Assembly (NCBI RefSeq): GCF_963506605.1
Contig: NC_083289.1
Span: 28,086,001 to 28,150,000 of the forward strand
Direction of reading: 5' to 3'
Length of the DNA: 64,000 bases
Origin: Zootoca vivipara
Taxonomy: Eukaryota
Below are positions 1 through 64,000 of the stretch, piece by piece. The notes beneath the pieces are model-generated. The model made no database searches. It was not told the origin of the DNA and saw only the letters and a program-made list of their open reading frames with translations. The position numbers and the translations under genes are program-made. Position 1 is the first letter of the stretch. Each line of letters opens with the position of its first letter.

Positions 1-3000
1 GCTTGGAGGTCTGAACAACCAGGTGCTGCATATCACGCCAGGTCAGGTTCTTGCTGCGGAGAAGGAGCAGCCGTGTCTCACCGGAGAGGGCAAGGGTGCC
101 AAACCCCTCATCTCCATCAGTGATCAAAGCAGCAGCACCCCCCACCCCCACAAGCCCTTCTCCCCTCCCTCCCTCCTGGCCCCCTTACTTGGCTTCCAGC
201 GCCAGGGCGATGATTCCAGCTGCCAATGGGGCAGAGGCGGAGGTACCTGTGTGGGACTCGGTGCACTTCTGCCTCAGGTCTGTTGTCACCTGGGGAGGAG
301 GAGGAGGAGGCACAGGGTGATTGCCAGGTTGTGACCCAAAGCCCACCCCCAACCCCCCTGTCAGGCCCGATGGAGACTCACAATCTGCTTCTCGTTCTGG
401 CTGCCGCTGCTGTAGGTGGTGGCGAGGGTGGAGGAGCAAGCCTCGCTGTACCAGGGCACGTTCCCGTACTGGGTGGTGCTGCTGATCGAGAGGGTGTAGA
501 TGCTGTTGGTGTAGCCGTCGCAGTTGCAGCTGTCGTGCTCGCGCCCGCCATTCCCAGAAGCCCAGACGAAGATGGAGCCCAGTCCGTTGCGGCCCTGGGG
601 TGGGGTGGGGACTAAGTCAGGCAGAGGCAAGACGGGGTGGGGGGCTTGGCAGCAGCCCAATCTCGCCCCAAGAGCCGCCTTTCCTCCTCCCCTGGCTGCA
701 GACCACAGGCTTACCTGGCTGACGCCCCGGTAGAAGGCCTCTTCGGCCAAGCGGGCCGGGCCGTCCACCGTCTTGCCGTCATCCTCGGGGCCCCAGCTGG
801 CGCTATAGATGTGGATGTGGTTGGGGTTGAGGCCCAGGGAACGGGCCTCCACAGCATCCGTCACCTCTCCATCCAGCATGCGGACACCTAAGATGATGGT
901 ACAGTTGGACATCACTAATGGCACTGCTCTGGTCTGCCTTGGCCAGGCCCCACCTGGAGTCCTGGGCACCACAGTTTGAGGAGGATACTGACAAGTTGGA
1001 AGAGGTGCTGAAGAGGGTGACCGAAATGATCAAGGGTCTGGAAGCCAAGCCTTATGGGGAACGGTGGAAGGAGTTAGGCATGTTTCACCTGGAGAAGGGG
1101 TGATATGAGAGCCACCTTCAAATATCTGAAGGGCTGCCACATGGAGGATGGAGCAAGCTTATTTTGTGATGCTCCAGAGCAGGCATCCCCAAACTTCGGC
1201 CCTCCAGATGTTTTGGACTACAATTCCCATAATCCCTGACCACTGGTCCTCTTAGATAGGGATCATGGGAGTTGTAGGCCAAAACATCTGGAGGGCCGAA
1301 GTTTGGGGATGCCTGCTCCAGAGTGTAGGGTCCAAACTAACGGATCCAAATGACAAGAAATGAGATTCCCACTAAACCTTGGGGGGGGGGGCAAATCTGA
1401 CTATACGAGCTGTTTGACAGGGGAACGACCTCCTTTTCCTGGATTCTTGTGATTCTTCCTTTGCAGGGGGGTTGGATTAGAAGACTCTCGGGGTCCCTTC
1501 CAACTCTACAATTTATGAGTTTAGCTCTGGGCAGCTAACCCAGTGTGAGAAGCTGGATGCAGAGCAGAGCCCAAGGCAGAGACGATGCCCTCCTCACCTC
1601 CGATCTTGGCGTTGTAAGCAACACCTACACCACAGATGCCATTGTTTGCCACGGCAGCTACTTCGCCTGCACACCGAGTACCATGCCTGTAAGAAGGAGA
1701 GGGGGGGTCGGACTTGAGCTGGGTGAGGAGGGACTGGCAGCCATATGTTAGAACAGGGAGAAAACAGGGGACAGGGGACAAGCAAACCTGCCCCAAACTT
1801 CTCTCCCTCTTAGTGCAGCTGAACAACACAGTCAGGGTTCAAATGGGCAAAGGGGGGGAGGGGGACAGAGGGGGGAAGTGCGGTATTCCCAGGGGGTAGG
1901 AAGCTCCACCCACCTTTCCTTCTGCACAGCACCATTCCCAGCCCACATGTCACCAGCGACTGAGCTTCCAGGACTGAGCAGAACTGGTGTTCCTCTTTCC
2001 CTACCCAATATCTCCCATCCCTACCCAACCTCTCTCCGGAAAGGCTCCCCACCTGTTGTCATTCATTTGGGTGTAACGTGGCTGAGGGTCTGAATCCTGA
2101 TCGTTCACATCAAAGCTGGCGGACGGATCCTGAAGGAAGAAAGAATTACAATATTGTAGAGTTGGGAGGGATCCAGGGGGATCCCTCTACTCCAACCCCC
2201 CTGCAATGCAGGAATCGCAACCGAAGGGCCCAGCACCACCTCCTTCCCCACTGGAATTGGCCTCCCCACAATCACGTTTTCTGCATCAGCAGTAAACTCC
2301 CAGTTCTGAAAGCTCCAGTTGTGACCCCAAGAGTCCACAAAGGACCACTGTTCCACGTGTGATGCAAAGCGGTGCTGCGGGTAGCCACAACCAGAGGCTG
2401 CATTTGCTTGGGCTCATTCCGTCAGAGAGTATTGCTCACAGGCAGGGCTTGATGGGGCTCAGGAGGACTCTGGGATTTTGTTACTGCTACAAAGCTTTCC
2501 TCAGCTTGCGTGCAAAAGTGGCCTCAGCTTGGGTGGGAGGGGGTTGTCGCATGAAGACTCACGGACCCTTCTACCAGCCCTGCAAAGTGGGCACGACATG
2601 TGCCAAGGGAGCCCGCTCACATCCCACTCACGTAGTTGGCCTCGAGATCCGGGTGGTTCTTCTCAATGCCGTCATCCAAGATGGAGATCACGATGCCACG
2701 CCCCGTGTAGCCCTGCTGCCAGGCCTCCCGCACGTTCAGGTCTCGCTGGTTCCCATTGGACTGGAGGGGAAAGGGGCAAAGGTGGGGGGAGCAGAAGGCC
2801 AGTCAGCACAGCCAGTAGGGCAACTCTAAAGGCTACAGAGCCGTGGCAGTGTTTCGTCACATGGAGGGGGGGGGAGAAGCCAACCACCTTTAACTAGACC
2901 CCAGATGCCTGGCTCACAGAATCATAGAATTGCAGAGTTGGAAAGGACTCCAAGAGCCATCTAGTCCAACCCCTGCCATGCAGAAATTACAGTTAAGTCT

Positions 3001-51300: not shown

Positions 51301-51790
51301 GGAAAAGGAGGAAGGCCCATTTTTAGGGGTGCAGGACACAAAATTTGAGGTTTTTTTAGGGGAGCCAAAGTTGTTGAGCTTCTTTGGGGGGAGCCAGTGA
51401 TCTACCTCAGACGTTCGGTGAATAGCTTCCAGCTGTTGGTGATGGGACAGGCCTATGACCACTGTACAAGACTGCAAGCCATATAAACACAGGCACACAT
51501 ACATGGGAGCACACAGTGGAGAAATTGCTTCAATGCTGCTGACCTGACCCATCTCACTTCCTGCAGTAATTTTTCAGCCAGCACAAATGGGTAAAACTAC
51601 TTTAATGAAGTATCTTGATTCTAGCATTTGCCAGCTCCCACCAGGCTGGGGCTCCTCCTTTCTTCTCCAGCCTCAGCAGGAGGTGGTCTGGTGGCCCCAT
51701 AATGCCACTGTGGCTATAAGCAGGAGTGTGAGCAGTTGAGGGAGAAGGAAAGGGAGCCACCACCTGGGCAGGCCCCCTCGGGGCTCTTGC

Positions 51791-53030
51791 CTACTTTGGC
51801 TGCTGTGGCTGAGGCTCTTCCTTCTTCTCCTTGGCAGCCTTCTGCTTCTGCTGCATGATTTCTGAATCTCTGGGGAGAGAAAAACAGGCAAGGCAGTCAG
51901 GCTGTAGCCATTGAGTCCAGAAGGGGTACCTGGGCCTGAGGGCAGGTGCTGGGCTGCTGGCAAATAAAGGTAGGGCAAGGGCTGCCTCAGTCGCCACTGG
52001 GCCTGAGAGAAGGGGCTGTCACTCTGGCCTCTGAGGGCTTTGACAAGGGGCTAGGCCAGACTAGGCTTGGCACATTAAGGATTTGGGTGGAAAGTAAGAG
52101 CAGGGATGGAGCAGCAGCAAGGACAGTTCGGCGGAGACTCCATAGCCAGTGGTGGAACCTCAGGCACCGGCCGCATGGACGTAGCGCGGGGGGCAGCATT
52201 CCCCCTAAATCATTCAAAATCAATACAAATCTGAGTTTCTGCCCCAACCAAAGCCCCCCGCCCCCGCCCCCCCCCACAAAAATCCTGGGGACATCTATGA
52301 CTGGCCGCCTCAGCCTTCAGCAGCAATGCCATGGAGGAGTCTTGAGACACCTTAAAGACAAGCAGACTGAGATGGGCATCCAAGGAAGCGGATGCCAGGA
52401 GCCCCGGAAAGCTCATCCAGGCCTACGGTGCTTCTATTTCTAGTGCCACGAGGAGCCTCGTTCCTATCAGAGAACAGGATGATGCCCACCGCTCACCAAC
52501 AGCGGCGGAACAAATAGGAAAAGCAGGAAGGTTGGGGAGGCAGCCAACCGTTCCTGGCTCTTGCCCCGGCCAGGTCTTTTATGCCGAGGAGGAGGCGCCT
52601 CCGGGCTCGAGGCCCCGCCCAGAAAGACAGCCAGCCCGCCCGCCCGCCCGACCTTGTTCCCCTCTCGCCCGGCGCTCACCGTTGCTTGCGGGCGGCGGCG
52701 GAGAGGCCGTCGTCGCGGCGCTTGCCCTTGTCAGCGTTCTTCTTCATGTTCTTGCTGCGCGCCAGTTCGCGCTGGTTTCCCCCTGCACCGCGGAGAAAGG
52801 TAGTGCACGTGTAAGCGCGGCGGGGGCCGGTCAGGCGGGGCCCCGGGGGCCACTGCGGGCCGCCGAGCCTTGCCGGGCGGGGGAAAGGGGCGGCAGAGGC
52901 GGCACCCCCGCCCTTAGCAAGTCAAGGAGGCAACGGGACCTTCCAGCCCATATCCTTCCCCCACCCACCGGAGAGTAATAAGGGGGCGCGAGACCGGACC
53001 GGGGGGGGGGGAGTCCCGCTTACGCGTCAT
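51791..53030 (-). CDS. SERF2: Small EDRK-rich factor 2, 62 aa
   Basis: Exons 53030-53024 (ATGACGC|gtaag), 52782-52680 and 51869-51791 give [68 protein letters not shown] on the minus strand at 51601-51606. Confidence 0.97.
52174..52299. mobile_element. hAT MITE in SERF2 intron 2
   Basis: catggacgt / acatctatg termini; TSD accggccg/actggccg. Confidence 0.7.
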
Positions 53031-53350
53031 GGCTCCGCTTCGCTCGAGTCCCCGAGGCAGCTACGGCCACAGCCCTGCCCTACTCCGCCCCTGTCGCCTG
53101 ATTGGCCAATCCGCACAGGGGCCAGGAGGCTATTAGCCCGCCAGCGCCAAGAGGCAGCCACTGGACCAGGCGGACCATTCAGCGATTGGCTGCAGGGGAG
53201 GACGGCCAGAAATGAAGGCGGGGCATCATGGAGGGCAACAGGCGCAACGTGGCGGTCTTGAAGCCCCTCCCCTGCGCCGCGAATGGCTGTGGAACCGCGA
53301 GTGGCGGGGCCCGTAGGAGCTCCGCCCTCTCCTCTCCAGTCCTGGGCACG
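53031..53350 (-). promoter_or_regulatory. SERF2 CpG promoter
   Basis: Palindromic ATTGGCCAAT (53101-53110), a further ATTGG (~53184) and GC boxes in CpG-rich sequence. Confidence 0.65.
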
Positions 53351-54809: not shown

Positions 54810-54949
54810 NNNNNNNNNNNNNNNNNNNNNNNNNNNNNNNNNNNNNNNNNNNNNNNNNNNNNNNNNNNNNNNNNNNNNNNNNNNNNNNNNNNNNNNNNNN
54901 NNNNNNNNNNNNNNNNNNNNNNNNNNNNNNNNNNNNNNNNNNNNNNNNN
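54810..54949. other. Assembly gap (N run)
   Basis: Run of N. Confidence 1.
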
Positions 54950-56124
54950 ATGAGGCAACTGGGATATTAGAATGGCCCTTGGTGGATCTTCAGAGCAATA
55001 AGGAACCCTTTAAGTACTTGGCCCTTATGGTGCACATAGATGTACATCCTGAGTGGGTACAAGACTGCCCTCCATACAACCAACTTTCACTTTTTTCAGC
55101 CAAACTGCAAAGTGCTGCCTGGCTGGCCCTTGTGGCAGTCATGAAGCCCCTCTTTGCCCAGACTTGTGTTTCAAAGAGGTATGGAAGAAGAACACAACAC
55201 AGTAAGAGTGGTGTTTGTCTGCTTTTAGAAAAGGGAGAATAATAATGCCAGAAGCAGAGCACCCCACCCCACCCCACAATAGCAGCAGAAAACCCTTTGC
55301 CAGTCCATGCAGGGAGCTGTATGTCTGTCCACACCCTGGAATTTGTTCTCCTCCTCAGCTCAACACTAGGAACAGGCCAGTCTTTGGGTTGAATGAGATG
55401 TATTCCAAGGTGGCTTCCCTGCAGATTGGCAGGGAAATGAATAGAGCACAGAAGAAAATATAAGCAGCAAGCTGGGTTGCAGGACAACATCCAGCCTCAG
55501 AGTATCCAGCTTCAGCTGGAAAGGATCTTCCCACCCTTTCACAATGACAGCCTTCCTTTACACTTAGGGAACATCATCATCAAATGTGTCAATGAGAGCC
55601 AGCCACTTGACTTCGGGTGCCATGTTTCATTCTTGGATAAACCTCGATTGCAAACCTCTCAATCACTGGTGTTGGTGGTGGCAGAGAAAGAGGAGGAGGA
55701 AGAGACCGAAGACTTCCTTTTTGGACTTACAGCCACGCAGTTCCATAGCAGCTGTAGGTATATACCATCACAGGAGAAACAAGTGGGCACACACAACAAG
55801 TATTTGGCCCTGACGCCCCTCAGAAGTCCTTGCTGTCGGAGAAGGTAGAACTTCACATTTCTGCAAGGCTTTCTAGGGTCAACCCAGGAAAAGAAGCAGC
55901 CACTCAGCTTGGCTGGGGAGCAGGAGCATCTGTCTGCAAAAGATGGCAGTGAGGAGACACATGAGCTTTCACAGCCTGACAATCTCTTATTTATCTCTTA
56001 CATATTTTTCCACCTTTCCTCCAAGGAGCTGAAGATGGCATACATCTCCCCATTTTATTATCACAACAACCCTGTGAGGTAGATTAGGCTTGGAGGCAGT
56101 GACTGGCCAAAGATCACCCAATAA

Positions 56125-56350
56125 GATTGGGTGGCGCCCGCCCTGTGGAACACCCTCCCATTATATGTCAAAGACAAAAACAGCTACCAGATTTTTAGAA
56201 GACATTTGAAGGCAGCCCTGTTTAGGGAGGCTTTTAATCTTTAATCGATTATTTTATTCTTCTGTTGGAAGCCGCCCAGAGTGGCTGGGGAAACCTAGCC
56301 AGATGGGCGGGGTATAAATAATAAATTATATTATTATTATTATTATTAAT
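56125..56350 (+). mobile_element. Young L2-type 3' end with (ATT)n tail, inserted into a MIR-like SINE
   Basis: ctgtggaacaccctccc ... gccgcccagagtggctgggg ... gggcggggtataaataataaa(tta)n; flanked by acaaccctgtgaggtag and ggctgagtggggatttgaacc SINE halves. Confidence 0.7.
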
Positions 56351-56574: not shown

Positions 56575-58336
56575 CTGAGCACTGTGAGCAATGGTGGGTG
56601 TTGCCATGTCTTCCGGAGTGGCCCCTCCTGGGCCAGGGCATTCCAGCAGCCCCCTCTGCCGCCTTGCTAGTTTGGAGAGCTCAACATGGATGGCCTAGAG
56701 ACAGTCAATGTCTTTTTAATCCTTGGGAGCAAATAGATAATACACTCGGTAGGCAGGGGGGGATCACCTCCAGTGCCCCCTGAGCACCCTCCCACCAGTG
56801 CTAGGAATATAATGTCATCTCAGTGCGAGCTGAGCAAAAGGGGAGATGCCAGTCACAAGTGCTGAAAGTGGCAGAGGATGAAGCTGGCCCAGCAAAGGTA
56901 GACCTTTCCCACCACCTCTGCTATTGTCCTTTGCCTGACTTTGCCCCTAGCGTGTCCTGTTGTCCCACCTTGGTAGTTGGCTCCAGCTGCAGGGCTCTCT
57001 TCAGAACAGTGGTGGCTGCCTGGTCCTCTCCCCGCTCTGACAACAGCTAAATAGCAGAGAGAGAGTGACAGAGATGGGGTGGTATATGAACTGGGTAGGG
57101 GTGGGGGAGCCTGCCCTTGTCCACCTCTTTCTCTGGCTGTTCTCTGCAGCTGTTCCTTGCCCCTCCCTCATGCCTTCTCTCACCTCTGGTGGTCACAATT
57201 CCCTTTCCCCCCACTTCAATCCAGACACAGCATTACATCAATATTGTGGGACAGGGACCTTTTGCCACCACCCCCACCACCCCACTCCAGATGTCAGCCA
57301 GCTGTAGGGCCTTCAGCATGCCATTCCCTAGCCAAGTTCTTCCCTCCTGCCCCTGGAGCAAGTGAGGGGCTGGGACGCGTATCCCTCATCACCTTCCCTT
57401 TCCTGTAAAGTGCCTTGATGTTCTCTGGGTCAAGCTGTATAACTTCATTGCAGGATGCCAGGGCCTCATCCAAAAGCTTCAGCTTCATCTGGGCAGCTGC
57501 ACAGTTGTTGAGGCATTTGACCCGATGGTCATGCAGCTCCTCTTCCTCCTCCTGGCTCAGGCAGTCTAGAGAGAAGCCCACATAAGTGCAGCGTCACCCC
57601 CAGCCAGGAGGTGCAGCTGGGGCTGAGCCCCAGAACTGGGCTTCTGCGGTAAGGATGGGTCAAGTGTGCCTTTGCAGGAGAGCACACCTGGGATGGGGTT
57701 CCTCTCCTTTTTCATCCAAAGGGCCCAGATTTGGGCTCACGACACTATTTCCAGGCAAGCTGCTGGTCAGCTCTAACTGAACCCTTGCCAACCCCATGTT
57801 TCCAACATGCACCAACATGGCTGTGTTGGCAGGGCTTCATCCCCCAGTGCATCCCAAGCCCTCAGAACAGTGCCTCACCTGTCCCCGGCAAGGAGAGGAC
57901 GTGCAAAGCCTGCTGGTAGGAGTGCAGGGCCTGCTCGTACTCCCCCCGCTCAAAGTGGAAGTTGCCCCACTCCCGCTTCTGGTTGCCCAGGCTGAGGCGC
58001 TCCATGGTGGGCAACAGCGACAGGTCCGGGCTGTCCTGCACATGCAGCAGAGTCACCTCGTACAGCAACGTGGCATCTTTGGGAATATCTGGCTCTCTGC
58101 AGGAGGAGGAGAGGCCTCTGAGAACACACAGCTCCCTTCCCCCACCAAGGACCATGTTGCCCCCCTCCCTGCGCACCAGTCACAGTGCAGCGCAATGACT
58201 GATGACTACCTGCCCAGGTGACCGTAGGCACAAGCAGGGCCAGCGAGGAAAAGGGCTATTTCACCAAGCTGCATGGAGCGGACGCCAAGGTCCAAAGCCT
58301 AAGGAAAGAAAAAGGAAACAAGGACCTGACCTCACC

Positions 58337-58381
<45 letters not shown>

Positions 58382-60388
58382 CCTGCTGTCACACCTCTCA
58401 GTACCACCATGTGCAAGAGTACATTGGCTTGGGAGCAACAGCGATTCTCATGTGGTCTGCATTGGCCTCTGCAGTTCGAAAGCACCTCAAAAGTGCAAGT
58501 AGATAAATAGGTACCACTCCAGCGGGAAGGTAAACACCCCCAGTGCATCCGGGGGGAAGGTTCGCCAGAAGCAGCTTAGTCATGCTGACCACATGACCTG
58601 GAAGCTGTCTGCAGACAAACACCGGCTCCCTCAGCCAATAAAGCGAGATGAGCGCCACAACCCCAGAGTTGGTCACGACTGGATCTAATGGTCAGGGGTC
58701 CCTTTACCTTTATGATGGCGCACAGGTAGAAAAGGTGAGATCCTATGTAGAGGGAGGGCCCTGTAAGCATGAGGTTGGGGGTGGCTGAAACAGAACAGAA
58801 GCAGAAGGACAGCAGGATTCCCCCCATTGGTGGCATTCAGTTGCTCAGGCAACCGAGAGAAATGGGCTGCCCCTGTGGGGCAGGCTGCCAGGCAAAGCCA
58901 GGGGAGCAAGGATCAGGAGGAGAAAATGCACGAAGGAACAAGGGAGCCCCTGGGCTGCAGCCTTCCCACACCTCACCTGTATTGCCTCCCCCTGGCCGAG
59001 GACAAAGGTGAGCTTTGGGTCCTTTTCCACCAGGCTGTGGTCCTCCAGAATTCCCAGCATCTTCACAGTAACCTCTTGGCCCAGTTGTGGCCAGCTGCCT
59101 CCCTCTGGGCTCCTCTTCACCAGACACTTCCGTAGGGACTTGTCCTCTGGAGGATGGAAAGGGAAGCATCAGTTCAACTACAGGTGGAGGTGTTTGCCTG
59201 AGGAAGTGTATGCAACTCCAACTGCCCAGGTGCAAAGGAAGGAAGGCCAAGGGAGTGCCGGAGAATGAGGAAGTTACAGTCCCTCTCTCACAACACAATC
59301 TGCTCTGGCCAAATAGAGGGGCCTTTTCTCCCCACCATGAGGTACTGGCTGCAGTGTCCCACCTGCCCAGCTACCTCCAAATGGTCCTGGGCCAGGGTCT
59401 GATTTACGCATAGGTTAAGTACACTACAGTTTAGGGCTTCAGGTGATGAAGGCCTCCAGATACAAAAAAGGGACTAGTTTGTTTTCATTTGACTTCTCTG
59501 TACTGATATCTACGCAAAAACAAAACATGTATTTCTCTCTTTTGCCTTCATGATCTGTTAGACTAATATACTTTTGGGGGAAGGGGTAGAACAATGGGGC
59601 CTCTCAAACTTGGCAGAGCTGAGGGCATCAGAAGGTCTTAATGTGGTTCCCCACACCCACCAGTTTTTCTCCTGCCTGGGGGGAAAATCCACATCATCCA
59701 GGACTTTAAGCATTTGCATTTTATTATGCTGCCTTCACTTATCCTCTTATTCCTTTTGATGCACCACCACACATTCTGTGGGGTGCTGAGTGTTGAGGTG
59801 GGCATCAGTCAAGCCACTCCTCAGTCTGATGCACCTCTAGAACCCCATGGGTGTGAGGGCAGCTGGTCTGGGTCGCTGAGGCGAGGGCAGGGGGCTTTCT
59901 GGCTAAGAGGCAGCGAACTCAGCAACCATCACCTGCCCCAGTGGCTTCTGGCTATGGCGCTTGTTAGCCAGCGATGTCACCCCCGCCCCCCAATGACTGG
60001 CACGGCAGCAGAAAGGATCATGTAGGGTCTGAGAGGCCGAGCCGCCCTGTTGCCTCCAACGCCCTCTGGGCAGCAGCGGGACCCTCCATCTCCTGGCCTG
60101 AAAGCCCCCTGCGCCCCGGGCCTCACCTCGGAGGTCCTCCCAGCCGTCAGCCGCAAAGAGCGCTGCAAAGCCGCCTCTTTCTCCTCCCAGCAAGCGCTCC
60201 AGCCGCTGGTAAAAGGATCGCTCCTGAAGCTGGGGCGGGGGCTCCTGGATGGTTGTGTGGGGCAGCAGGAAATGGACCCTCCGTCCAAGGTGCGGGCCGC
60301 CTCCCTCCAGCAGCACCGGCCCGAGGCTGGCGCCCGCCCCCTCGCCTTCCTCCTCTTCCTCGCCCTGAAACATCTTGACCAAGAACAT
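56575..60388 (-). CDS. FKBP8/FKBP38-like PPIase-TPR co-chaperone (possible orthologue of fish fkbp16); terminal exon unresolved
   Basis: Kozak ccaccATG at 60388. Exons 60388-60127, 59146-58977, 58298-58210, 58096-57879, 57565-57393, 57046-56969, 56694-56575 total 1110 nt, all GT-AG and in frame. FKBP domain (GWEDL..LRK..GQEVTV..FVLGQGEAIQALDLGVRSMQLGE..AYG..IPKDATLLYEVTL), three TPRs (KREWGNFHF, CLNNCAAAQMKL, NIKALYRKGK) and helix AIHVELSKLARRQ. Confidence 0.9.
58341..58380. repeat. (CA)n microsatellite
   Basis: Direct observation, about 40 nt upstream of the FKBP-like exon 3 acceptor. Confidence 0.95.
58470..58712 (+). mobile_element. 5'-truncated Sauria SINE
   Basis: Matches the reverse complement of the 3' two-thirds of the copy at 42876-43236; ends ggggtccctttaccttta. 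Confidence 0.88.
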
Positions 60389-60967
60389 GGTGGGCAGCTC
60401 CTCCGTCCTCGGAAGGGGCTTCCCGGGGCGAGGGGCTTTGCCTGCAGCCGCGCATCAGGATCTCGAGGGATTTGCTTCCCCGCCTTGCATGCGACGGTCG
60501 GAGCAGGCCGGCAGCGGCAGAAGCAAGAGACCGCTTAGTCGTCTCTCCTTCCCTCAGTCTACACTGAGCGCCTGTAATTCAATTATAGAGTAAGCCCCCC
60601 CTACGCCCCAGCTGCGCTCAGGCTTACTTCCAAGGAGGATCTGGGCGTCAGGCTGCGGCCGGGTTTAGCAGGGATCAGCTGGGCCCCCTCCCTTTGGGCT
60701 GCCTTAATAAACCCAAGTAATGTAAATGCCTTCGCGTCTATAACAGAAGAGGGAGGCAGGGACCAGCAACCCGCTGTTCACTCAGACGCGACGGAAAAGG
60801 GGTTTTCCTCTTATACTACGCAAGGCCCCAAAGACTTGCGCCAAGAGGGAATACTTCTCGTGGATGAATGGGTTCCCCCCGATCTCCTGACAGGCTAGAT
60901 TCTGAGAATACTCAGTTGGCTTCGCCCTCCATCCAATTCTCTCATGTATGAACAGACCACCCAGAAG

Positions 60968-61141
60968 CAGAAGTGCCAACCTCAAAACTTTGGGGGAGCA
61001 GGTAAGCCCCGCTCGCATAATCGATCACATGATGCGGTGCATACACACTACTTGAATAGCAGTGCCCATCAACTGTGGGGGGGGCGGCCCCCGCAAAAAA
61101 TAATAGGGGGGGCTGGACACCCCTCGGCGCCTAGTAGTATG
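60968..61141. mobile_element. hAT-type MITE in the divergent promoter
   Basis: 174-bp insert flanked by the perfect 8-bp direct repeat cccagaag; termini are degenerate. Confidence 0.6.
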
Positions 61142-61448
61142 CCCAGAAGTAAACGTCTATCAAAGTCTTCTGGGTGAGGGAAGCCGCTCAACCGAAGAGG
61201 CGCATCCAACAGTCTTAGCGGTTCTTAGGGGATACTGCCCCGCCCCAGATTATTGCCCACTGACCTGCGGGGCTCTAAGAGGCTTAGTGGAGAATCCCAA
61301 GAAGCACGTGGCCACGCTGCACGTGGCCAAGCGTCCGGGGTCGGCTGCCTGCCCCTGGGGGCTTTGTAGTAGATGTGAGGCCCGCGGCCCAAAGGGAGGC
61401 CCAGCCTCGGGATCTCCGGTCTGGGGGACCGGGGACAATGGGCAGAAG

Positions 61449-61539
61449 CATAGCTGTCAAGTTTTCCCTTTTCTCGCGAGGAAGCCTATTCAGCATAAGG
61501 GAATTTCCCTTTAAAAAAAGGGAGAACTTGACAGCTATG
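61449..61539. mobile_element. 91-bp MITE (catagctg TIR family), ~295 bp upstream of the ELL3 ATG
   Basis: TIRs catagctgtcaagtt / aacttgacagctatg; TSD ggcagaag/agcagaag; same family as the copies at 40453 and 41301. Confidence 0.9.
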
Positions 61540-61833
61540 AGCAGAAGTTCCCCTGAAGACCTGGATAATGGACCGGCCGTGCTTCTTCGGGGCAAACTGT
61601 TGAGGGGCTTCTGGACGGGACAGCAGACTAAAGCTCAGAGGTCTCTTCTTGCTCCGGGCCTTTCCCATGCCCCAAACAGAGGCAGGTCTGGCCAGGCATC
61701 CCTGGCTGGGCACGCGCACCGGTTCGTGGAGCAGCAGCGGCTACCGAGCAAGGAGCAGCGGCCCCGCCCCGCCCTGCTGTCGAGCCCAAGTCCCGCCCAG
61801 GCGCCGCCGCCGCCACAGCCGCTCACTCCAGCG

Positions 61834-63029
61834 ATGCCGCGGCGGGCGACGGAGCGCCTTTCCTACCGCCCCGGTTCGCGGGGCGCCCGCCTCAGCCTCT
61901 TCCACGTGAAACTGACTGACTCGGCCCTCCAGGCCTTAGTCGCCTACCAGCGGTGTCAGGTAACGGGCTGGGCTGGAGGCAATTGCCGCACGGCCAGTCA
62001 CTTGGCGGGAGGGCTAGTCTCACTGTCCGCTTTTTTTCTGCAGGTGGCGGCGCCTCGACCCGTGATCGCCTTCCAGGGTAGCCAAGGGGTAAGGATATTT
62101 CCCAGCACCGTGCATTGGGCAGGGGTCCTGTCGTGGACCCTGCCGGCATCGCCGGGGCTGGGCAACGGAGCGGCGCCGTGGACGTTGCTATCGCCGCGGG
62201 CGCCGCCTGCTTGCTAATGAGCTCCCCGCGGCTTTCTGCAAGGCGGCTAACGAGCCTCGCGCGAGCGGCAGACCGAGCCTGGCTGCGGCGTCCTCCCCGC
62301 GGAGTGCTCTGCTGTCTTGGCGCTGGAATGGGGCATCCCGCCCCGTCAAAAGCAGCTTCTTTTTCGGGCTATGTTAGCTCTCCTTTCCCCTCGTCGATCT
62401 AGACGGGAAAACCCCTTTAGCAAAGGGAAGAGCGGAAAAGACGGAGCTGGCAGATGCCGCGCCTCCGCTGCTCTGTACGGGGAGCCCCGCGCTCTCTTCT
62501 TGCGCAGGGCCAAGGCTGACCCCTGGAAAAACACACAGCCCCACAGTGTCTTTCACTCACGCTGGGCCATGCCCCACTGGCACAGAAACAGACCCTAGCC
62601 ACATGTCTAGGGTCAGGTCCTGCTCCGGAGGCCAAGGGGCCAGACCAGATTCCCACTCTTCTCTTTCTATGCTGTCCAGTATCTGAAGGTGCCCTGCAGT
62701 GCCACTGCCGGCTGTCGTGACCCACGGACTTTCCGCTTCACCTTCTACCTCTCACGCTATACGAAGGAGCAGCCGCAGGCCAGCTTCGATTGCGTCCGCC
62801 AGGCCAGTACCAGGTGAGCTGGCCCAGCCCAAAAGCTGTTTCCCTGGGGTGGGAATGAGGGAGAGAGGCATCCCTGAACATTGCTCTTCTTTGCCCAGGT
62901 GGCTGGAGGGCAGAGGAGCTATCCAAGAGAAGATCACCATCTGTGCCATGGTTGTGGAGGCCTCCAAGTCCAGATGGGGGGTAGAGAGGCTGGCCTGCCG
63001 TAGGGCAGCAGCTGCATTCCCAAACCCAG
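61834..63029 (+). CDS. ELL3: RNA polymerase II elongation factor ELL3, exons 1-4; gene continues beyond the window
   Basis: Exons 61834-61959 (..LSLFHVKLTDSALQAL..), 62044-62088 (RPVIAFQGSQG), 62680-62813 (YLKVP..FTFYLS..SFDCVRQ), 62899-63029 (GAIQEKITICA) encode the ELL N-terminal domain. The ELL3 assignment rests on synteny with SERF2. Confidence 0.88.
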
Positions 63030-63447
63030 GTGAGGAGAGAGGGGCAAGGGGCAACAAGGGGTTCTTGGATAGGAGCTGAAGGGGGAATTGGCACAAATTG
63101 CCACCACCTCTCTTCCCTACCCACTTCCTGAAAGGAACAATTTGTGAGTGTTGCCATTCAAAGGTCTCTGGTTCTAACCTAGAATGTATATATTCTAAGA
63201 AGCAGTGGAACATGTTTTAAATTTAAAACCACATAGCAAACTGTTTTTACTAACATGTGATCATAATGGAAGTTTAGTTTGGTATCTTATCTAAAACCTT
63301 TGTGTCCTAGAGGGTGGCTGTATTAAATCTGTTTATATAAGCAGTTATTACTACTATAATAAACTGATATGGTAATTTCCCAGTAATGGAAAAGCCGTGG
63401 AAATATAGTGTGTGCTAAATAACTAGTATAAATCTAATGTTTTATTA

Positions 63448-63780
63448 CAGGCACGTCCAACAGGTAAATTGTGATCTACCAGTAGATCACTGGATGTCTG
63501 TGGTAGATCACTGCTAGATCACTGGCACCCCTAAAAAAAGCTCACCCAAAATTTTCCTCCCTAAAAAAGCTGAACTATGACCTGAAGCCCTAAACAAAAA
63601 TGGGCCTCCCTCCCTCCTAAAAGAAGCTCAACAAGTTTGACCTAAACCCCCCAAAACAGGGCTTCCTTTCCTTAAAAAAACTCAACAGCTTTGACCTGAA
63701 CCCCCCCAAAAGGGGGTAGATCACTCCCAGTTTTTAACTCTGTGAGTAGATCAGAGTCTCTTGGGAGTTGGCCACCCCTT
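63448..63780. mobile_element. Non-autonomous hAT-like element with internal tandem subrepeats
   Basis: caggcacgtccaac / gttggccacccct termini; repeated gtagatcac and aaaagctcaaca..tttgacct units; a decayed inverted relative lies at ~51231-51450. Confidence 0.65.
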
Positions 63781-64000
63781 TAATTTATTATATACACGGT
63801 GGATTTATGAAATCCTTCCATATGTGAACCATCTTGAGATTTTCAGATTAAGGGTGGTATACAAATTTAATAAGTGGATCTGAAGTGCAACATCCAAATT
63901 TCAGCTCAGTTGCCATATAGACAATCACTGTGGAGGAAGAATGGAAACTGTCTTCTGCAATTGGCATTGGGGAGGGGGCCGAGCTGCTGACAGCCAAGGC

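Follow-up and report, generated by a model that had tools for sequence, protein, structure and literature searches.

What is the FKBP-type gene that lies between a SERF-family gene and an ELL-family gene in the lizard Zootoca vivipara, and what might its product do? The locus sits in a 64-kb stretch of the genome of this species, here called the window, and all positions below follow the numbering of that stretch; the window gene and the window protein are the FKBP16-type gene between the SERF-family and ELL3-type genes and its product. In human, the ELL3 block presumably has no FKBP16-type gene. A first-pass annotation had proposed an intact paralogue of FKBP8, possibly the orthologue of fish fkbp16, kept in squamates and lost in mammals. 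We favour, with reasonable rather than strong confidence, the reading that this sequence encodes lizard FKBP16, a paralogue of FKBP8 that likely binds Hsp90 through its TPR clamp and docks protein phosphatase 1 (PP1) through an RVxF motif.

Orthology with fish fkbp16

The window gene is almost certainly the orthologue of fish fkbp16 and a paralogue of FKBP8. In a careful tree built on 38 rows of the FKBP-TPR core, the window protein grouped with other lizards, then with archosaurs and a turtle, with amphibians, and then with the FKBP16 proteins of fish, coelacanth and shark (clade support 83/100), and FKBP8, represented only by the lizard and two eel rows, formed a separate clade (99/95). A quick 21-row tree gave the FKBP16 clade a support of 100 in the Shimodaira-Hasegawa-like approximate likelihood ratio test (SH-aLRT), and on this tree the union of the window protein with its own FKBP8 in one clade was rejected by the approximately unbiased (AU) test (p-AU 7e-89). 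The grouping of FKBP8 and FKBP16 against invertebrate-type rows received 97 in the 21-row tree and gained no clear support in the 38-row tree, with an invertebrate-type outgroup that held one named row (a hemichordate) and no named lamprey or amphioxus. Taken as a whole, the sequences support a split between FKBP16 and FKBP8 before sharks and bony fish diverged. The core of the window protein shares 52-54% identity with FKBP16 of Danio, Latimeria and Pristis and 46% with the FKBP8 of its own genome, and among the FKBP16 relatives compared the FKBP plus three-TPR core is 52-68% identical.

Several databases call this protein FKBP8 or FKBP8-like, which would suit an FKBP8 copy of recent or lineage-specific origin, or a transfer of FKBP8 itself to a new place. 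But the genome holds a complete 412-aa FKBP8 on contig C6, with an acidic N-terminus containing FEVL and PPLE motifs and with a membrane anchor, adjoining a KxDL gene, and the core of the window protein is closer to fish and shark FKBP16 than to this FKBP8. With FKBP8 found on C6, the window protein outside the FKBP8 clade of the 38-row tree, and their pairing rejected by the AU test, we regard relocation or recent duplication as refuted and its remaining probability as minute. The proposal of an FKBP8 paralogue orthologous to fish fkbp16 was therefore borne out. A search of the genome with the TPR exon returned two matches, the window and C6:11.28 Mb; the exon 2 query matched the window only and missed FKBP8, so that such genome searches undercount.

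The two genes of this genome share their exon-intron plan: all seven intron phases are the same, six of the seven introns occupy matching columns of the alignment, and five internal exons do not differ in length. The window protein also resembles FKBP8 (FKBP38; 5MGX; PMC5344419, PMC3804861) in fold, in the Hsp90 carboxylate clamp and in an arginine that occludes the FKBP pocket. It has no counterpart to the acidic N-terminus with its FEVL and PPLE motifs or to the distal YxK/RM half of the post-TPR helix, and in lizards and birds it lacks the anchor; conversely, an RVxF motif and two extra N-terminal helices belong to FKBP16 and not to FKBP8. Compared with fish fkbp16 ("FKBP prolyl isomerase 16" of Danio, Latimeria and Pristis), the lizard form falls in the same clade and has the same FKBP and three-TPR core, with the RVxF-like motif at an equal distance from it, but its N-terminus is shorter and its C-terminal membrane anchor is gone. 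The FEVL and PPLE motifs of FKBP8 have roles in LC3 and PHD2 binding.

A putative PP1-docking motif on a TPR-clamp core

Residues 36-40 of the window protein read RRVHF (codons 36-40, 60269..60283, minus strand), are followed by LLPHTTI, and fit the loose RVxF consensus [RK]x0-1[VI]{P}[FW]. For comparison, 7990 candidates were scored; 243 homologous proteins had an E value of 1e-40 or better, and the best 120 of these were examined; leaving out five with N-termini shorter than 50 aa gave a set of 115 N-termini. We used a strict five-position pattern, [KR][ACHKMNQRSTV]V[CHKNQRST][FW], which is the six-position pattern of PMC4794898 minus the first of its two basic positions. The strict pattern occurred in 109 of the 115 N-termini, with 0.59 expected from shuffled sequences, and 105 of these 109 matches lay 42-50 residues ahead of the FKBP core; the loose consensus was present in 112. 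In the last 80 N-terminal residues of 74 FKBP8-type representatives, used as controls, there were no strict matches and one loose match.

Conservation is sharply focused on the motif. When 59 sequences selected for intact N-termini are aligned, residues 1-82 contain just two columns, V38 and F40, that are invariant in all 11 deep lineages (sawfish to lizard), and the positions between the fixed residues hold various amino acids (M, T, R, A, V, S, Q, K and R, K, Q, H, T) within the sets that PP1 permits. The model treats the segment around the motif as disordered, with a predicted local distance difference test (pLDDT) score below 50 for aa 1-47. The sole alligator model lacks it; the N-terminus of this model is hard to align and possibly stems from a different first exon. 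From the sequence pattern, we consider that the N-terminal motif probably docks PP1.

RVxF-type PP1 subunits such as Phactr1, spinophilin, PNUTS and PPP1R15 share the basic-x-V-x-F motif in a disordered segment and have a hydrophobic second docking pair, according to PMC7599070 and PMC10731240. In FKBP16, a Leu-Pro-x-x-Thr-Ile continuation after the motif is common to sharks, coelacanth and tetrapods, and T46-I47 of the window protein may be a second hydrophobic (phi-phi) pair, the candidate lying 6-7 residues past the Phe in these same groups. Unlike the known subunits, FKBP16 displays no conserved Arg or Trp motif in the aligned sequences, and its motif is carried on the core of an FKBP-TPR co-chaperone. 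Also conserved in fish and amphibian FKBP16 proteins (P0024, P0072, P0134 and relatives) is the sequence (R/K)TPS(F), which precedes the motif by 5-8 residues, and a Thr or Ser often stands inside the motif itself; it is possible that these are phosphorylation sites able to switch PP1 docking. A predicted complex of PP1 with residues 28-82 scored 0.54, 0.31 and 0.00 in three runs (median 0.31 against a mark of 0.34), peptides and disordered chains being beyond the tested range of the tool. The prediction was run without alignments or folded controls, with an intact animal-type PP1 chain from a metagenome locus that differs from sturgeon PP1-gamma at 4 positions over residues 64-299, and we count it neither for nor against docking.

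The remainder of the protein is a co-chaperone-type core. In the AlphaFold2 (AF2) model (mean pLDDT 79), the disordered residues 1-47 lead into two helices (54-67 and 74-79) and the FKBP domain; three TPRs with a capping helix follow, and the tail is disordered. The best-matching fold is that of FKBP38 in complex with an Hsp90 peptide (5MGX, E 3.5e-27), in agreement with the FKBP domain and three TPRs read in the first-pass annotation. The helices of residues 54-79, which are encoded in exon 1, have pLDDT above 80, carry the conserved residues F59, F74, L77 and F78, stand ahead of the FKBP domain and have no FKBP8 counterpart. A search of the ESM Atlas with residues 25-85 found no look-alike at 0.9 or more, and the whole protein matched FKBP-TPR clusters only.

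The Hsp90-clamp residues of FKBP8 listed in PMC5344419 are R225, N229, K273, N276, N277, N305, K307, R311 and K314. In the window protein, clamp residues R215, N219, N267, K297 and R301 are present. Across 28 aligned orthologues, the equivalents of R225, N229, K273, N276, N277 and N305 are found in all 28, that of K307 in 26, that of R311 in 27 and that of K314 in 24, and the earlier claim that carboxylate-clamp-type residues are kept thus holds. By likeness to FKBP8, the TPR clamp very likely binds Hsp90.

The FKBP pocket appears degenerate. With the gap at F36/D37 shifted by hand, the alignment to the first domain of FKBP52 places M117, V127, E128 and L146 at positions Y26, F36, D37 and W59, in FKBP12 numbering, where the FKBP52 domain has Tyr, Phe, Asp and Trp; the replacement of these active-site residues had already been noticed in the first reading of the locus. 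A tyrosine (Y186) occupies the F99-type pocket position, and the Y82 equivalent, Y169, is kept. At the His87 position stands R174, the equivalent of the occluding Arg184 of FKBP8, which is found in 59 of 59 aligned rows. The replaced aromatic residues, together with the retained occluding Arg, suggest that FKBP16 has little or no constitutive isomerase activity. Beyond the TPRs, a helix resembling the calmodulin-binding segment of FKBP8 had been proposed. Its first half is indeed kept, but the distal YxK/RM half is gone (0 of 120 FKBP16-type matches versus 77 of 84 FKBP8-type representatives).

These parts can be put together in a mechanism. The intact TPR clamp would hold the C-terminal tail of Hsp90, the degenerate FKBP domain would serve as a binding surface for clients, and the N-terminal RVxF motif would dock PP1, so that the phosphatase would be placed at Hsp90 complexes or at FKBP-held clients. 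Delivery of PP1 would take place at the membrane in fish and amphibians and in the cytosol in lizards and birds. With the TPR immunophilin co-chaperones of Hsp90, the window protein shares an FKBP domain, three TPRs, a capping helix and the carboxylate-clamp residues. Related arrangements exist: PP5 couples a Ser/Thr phosphatase to an Hsp90 TPR clamp in one chain, FKBP51-PHLPP brings a phosphatase to an FKBP-TPR scaffold, and FKBP15 (alias PPP1R76, an alias that our literature search did not confirm) links PP1 to an FKBP. To our knowledge, none of these combines a PP1 RVxF motif with an Hsp90 TPR clamp.

Transcripts, membrane anchor and rival readings

The window gene consists of eight coding exons on the minus strand, all AG/GT-bounded and in frame, which give 379 codons and a stop. 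The seven in-phase GT-AG exons described earlier (370 stop-free codons) were confirmed as exons 1-7, but the last coding exon had been overlooked. Exon 1 (60127..60388; junction 59146/60127 in an X1 contig) encodes the disordered N-terminus (aa 1-47), the RVxF-like motif, the two helices predicted at aa 54-67 and 74-79 by the pLDDT profile, and the start of the FKBP domain. The FKBP domain continues through exon 2 (58977..59146, 170 nt, as long as FKBP8 exon 2, placed by contig junctions) and exon 3 (58210..58298, 89 nt), whose end falls in the R174 codon, and ends in exon 4 (57879..58096, 218 nt), which also encodes TPR1 with clamp residues R215 and N219. Exon 5 (57393..57565, 173 nt) covers TPR2 and the start of TPR3 with K263, N266, N267, N295, K297, R301 and K304, exon 6 (56969..57046, 78 nt) covers TPR3, and exon 7 (56575..56694, 120 nt) covers the capping helix, which lacks the YxK/RM half of the FKBP8 helix, and the disordered tail. 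The coding part of exon 8 (55904..55933) adds nine codons and a TGA stop and encodes no transmembrane segment. Downstream of it, 55342..55903 is the probable 3' untranslated region, as reached by an X2 contig if that contig is colinear. The 379-aa product is identical at all aligned residues to Zootoca vivipara XP_034987620.1, which has two additional residues at the first junction, and shares 365 of 379 residues with Podarcis raffonei XP_053220232.1. Since both are labelled "FKBP8-like", the gene is already in databases under an anonymous name.

All junctions of the window gene are present in spliced contigs from five runs presumed to be RNA (X1, X2, X3, X4 and X12), whose intron-skipping joints are as expected from RNA; it is a real spliced gene. 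One X1 contig joins exons 1-2, 2-3 and 3-4, and single contigs of X2 and X3 span exons 3-7 with every intron removed and with loose ends that match exons 2 and 8. The 4-5 joint was found in X12, and the 5-6 and 6-7 joints, with a loose end in exon 8, in X4. Exon 7 is joined to the stop-bearing exon 8 in all three of the runs that reach it, where the loose ends of X2, X3 and X4 contigs at 56575 match 55904-55933. Separately, an X4 contig reads past the exon 6 donor into the intron (56917-56996), matching the truncated RefSeq model XP_060138749.1, possibly an intron-retaining form without the capping helix. A partial sample of 25 distinct coding differences (X1, X2, X3, X12) contained 13 synonymous differences over 202 sites and 12 non-synonymous differences over 644 sites, a crude ratio of non-synonymous to synonymous rates (dN/dS) of about 0.29.

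Among the best 120 of 243 matches, we scored a C-terminal membrane anchor as a hydrophobic 19-mer with a score of at least 2.0. The anchor was present in 57 of 58 fish and shark, 17 of 19 amphibian, 3 of 12 turtle and the one crocodilian protein, and in none of 13 squamate and 17 bird proteins, the C-termini of the birds and most lizards being gene models rather than RNA. Between exon 7 and SERF2, tblastn with nine orthologue tails and a hidden Markov model of 20 tails found no significant transmembrane exon, with 140 N at 54810-54949 unreadable. The second frame of exon 8 holds a short hydrophobic run whose likeness to an anchor is not significant. Several lizard families have the same short terminal peptide, and a short C-terminal peptide without an anchor, loosely similar to the lizard one, is present in two turtle models, so an old alternative last exon is possible. 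Since turtle and alligator proteins have anchors, two separate losses, one in lizards and one in birds, are the simplest account. We infer that the tail-anchored state seen in fish, amphibians, alligator and some of the turtle models gave way to a soluble one in lizards and birds; in lizards, where the anchor is absent, FKBP16 is probably soluble.

A number of observations weigh against a PP1-docking co-chaperone and have to be set beside the evidence above. By PMC4794898, about 25% of proteins contain the loose RVxF consensus by chance, and the window motif misses the six-position consensus given there, position 35 being Gly, as in 40 of 59 aligned orthologues. The 115 N-termini come from related sequences, which are not independent of one another; the 59 aligned orthologues show no conserved Arg motif downstream; and I or V occupies position 47 in 48 of these 59, the candidate phi-phi pair not being kept in teleosts. 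FKBP16 inactivity is uncertain because isomerase activity can be measured for the FKBP domain of FKBP38 in isolation, although that domain carries similar substitutions (PMC3804861). In three raw RNA runs labelled with the species of the best-matching DNA runs, of which about 6% each was read, there was essentially no depth over exons 1-6, while the SERF2 joints were covered by 48-185 reads each, so expression of the window gene would be low or tissue-restricted. Some contigs also extend into introns 5, 6 and 7.

A plainer reading, possible but rather unlikely in our judgement, is that FKBP16 is an ordinary FKBP8-like Hsp90 co-chaperone in which the K/R-x-V-x-F element binds a partner other than PP1 or packs on its own FKBP domain in an autoinhibitory manner. 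The N-terminal extension of FKBP38 makes transient autoinhibitory contacts, as described in PMC3804861, the adjacent segment 54-79 with its conserved F59, F74, L77 and F78 is modelled as ordered helices, and the miss of the six-position consensus points the same way. Against this, the fixed positions are the basic residue, Val and Phe only, as in the PP1-docking pattern, the intervening ones vary within PP1-compatible sets, and the AF2 model leaves the motif unpacked. We give much less credence to the view that the motif binds PP1 in the ancestral anchored protein and that the weakly expressed lizard gene is nearing loss, a fate apparently already reached in mammals and perhaps in snakes, with the missing anchor a sign of decay. 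Nearly zero raw-read depth, the disappearance of the anchor and of the YxK/RM helix half, the lack of a snake or mammal in the best 120 of 243 matches and a crude dN/dS that is not very low would all suit this view, which must nevertheless contend with an intact frame in 13 squamate and 17 bird proteins that retain motif and clamp, with fully spliced contigs from related organisms, with the excess of synonymous over non-synonymous differences per site, and with the same short terminal peptide in several lizard families.

Neighbourhood, range and significance

The SERF-family neighbour (51641..53183, minus strand, three spliced exons) is SERF2 by position. On the other side lies the 5' part of an ELL-family gene (61834..64000, plus strand, start near 61834). 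Contigs C6 and C11 carry ELL-family genes whose PDB matches identify them as ELL and ELL2, respectively, which leaves ELL3 for this neighbour by elimination. The start codons of the window gene and the ELL3-type gene face each other across a CpG-rich gap of 1.45 kb (60389..61833) with a CpG observed/expected ratio of 0.64, compared with 0.20 in the gene body, and this gap is a probable common promoter region. Interspersed repeats resembling short interspersed nuclear elements, which draw thousands of partial read and contig matches, occur at 58471-58712 (intron 2), 55990-56330 (intron 7) and 61449-61518 (in the gap to ELL3).

The local order is furin-type convertase (364-1029, minus strand, and C14:28084522-28084840), MFAP1, Serinc, SERF, the window gene, the ELL-type gene and a thioredoxin-domain (PDI-type) gene, the convertase lying about 25 kb from MFAP1 and about 60 kb from ELL3. 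The order in human 15q15 matches it, except for the window gene and the convertase, FURIN being far from the human ELL3-SERF2-MFAP1 block. A convertase gene lies about 60-170 kb from an ELL-family gene on three contigs (C14, C6 and C11), and this tight link looks ancestral. A SERF-family gene also occurs on C11, and a third SERF-family match was seen at C8:22005237-22005347. The threefold convertase-ELL block fits a whole-genome-duplication origin, as had been proposed, and the window gene fits an early-vertebrate paralogue of FKBP8 that arose in this way. The more specific pairing of ELL/FKBP8 with ELL3/FKBP-like stood in part: ELL (5.78-5.81 Mb) and FKBP8-KXD1 (11.28-11.30 Mb) are on the same contig C6, which supports it at chromosome scale, but they are 5.5 Mb apart and not adjoining. 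In human, ELL and FKBP8-KXD1 are neighbours.

The best 120 of 243 matches, sorted by hand with five unnamed rows put with fish by sequence, comprised 13 squamate, 12 turtle, 1 crocodilian, 17 bird, 19 amphibian and 58 fish or shark proteins, and newt, axolotl and coelacanth members are present in a representative library. Across fish, amphibians, turtles, alligator, birds and lizards, the database names are "FKBP8-like" or "fkbp16". The idea of a special retention in squamates consequently fell, as turtles, alligator, birds, amphibians and all sampled fish groups also have FKBP16. Loss in mammals, the other half of that idea, is consistent with the absence of any named mammal from the best 120 of 243 matches, which does not prove it. 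No snake was named among these matches either, though the 13 lizard proteins were there, and a second loss in snakes is possible. Our literature search, with subscription journals and supplements outside its scope, found no paper on vertebrate FKBP16; the fkbp16 papers that it listed concerned plant FKBP16 or other genes, and by their titles those on FKBP8 paralogues and genome duplication, or on FKBP8 with PP1, did not treat it. The gene is known to databases and of a known kind, but neither its PP1-type motif nor the repeated anchor loss seems to have been described before.

In its fullest form, the history suggested by these sequences is that of an unrecognised PP1 subunit and Hsp90 co-chaperone, in which, after the early vertebrate duplication, one FKBP8 copy exchanged its acidic N-terminus, the autophagy/calmodulin one, for a PP1-docking motif that was kept for more than 400 million years, the protein being freed from its anchor twice, in lizards and in birds, and lost in mammals; we rate this account as evenly balanced between right and wrong. 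PP1 obtains its specificity from docking partners, and lists of these partners are mostly mammalian. Mammals seem to be without FKBP16, so lists built on mammals would miss it, and many non-mammalian "FKBP8" names in databases denote FKBP16 and not FKBP8. If the account is true, FKBP16 would neatly exemplify an ohnologue that acquired a new linear motif, with a tail anchor dropped twice (in lizards and in birds) and kept by turtles and alligator. If the motif works, zebrafish, frog and chicken would have an unstudied PP1-targeting subunit tied to Hsp90.

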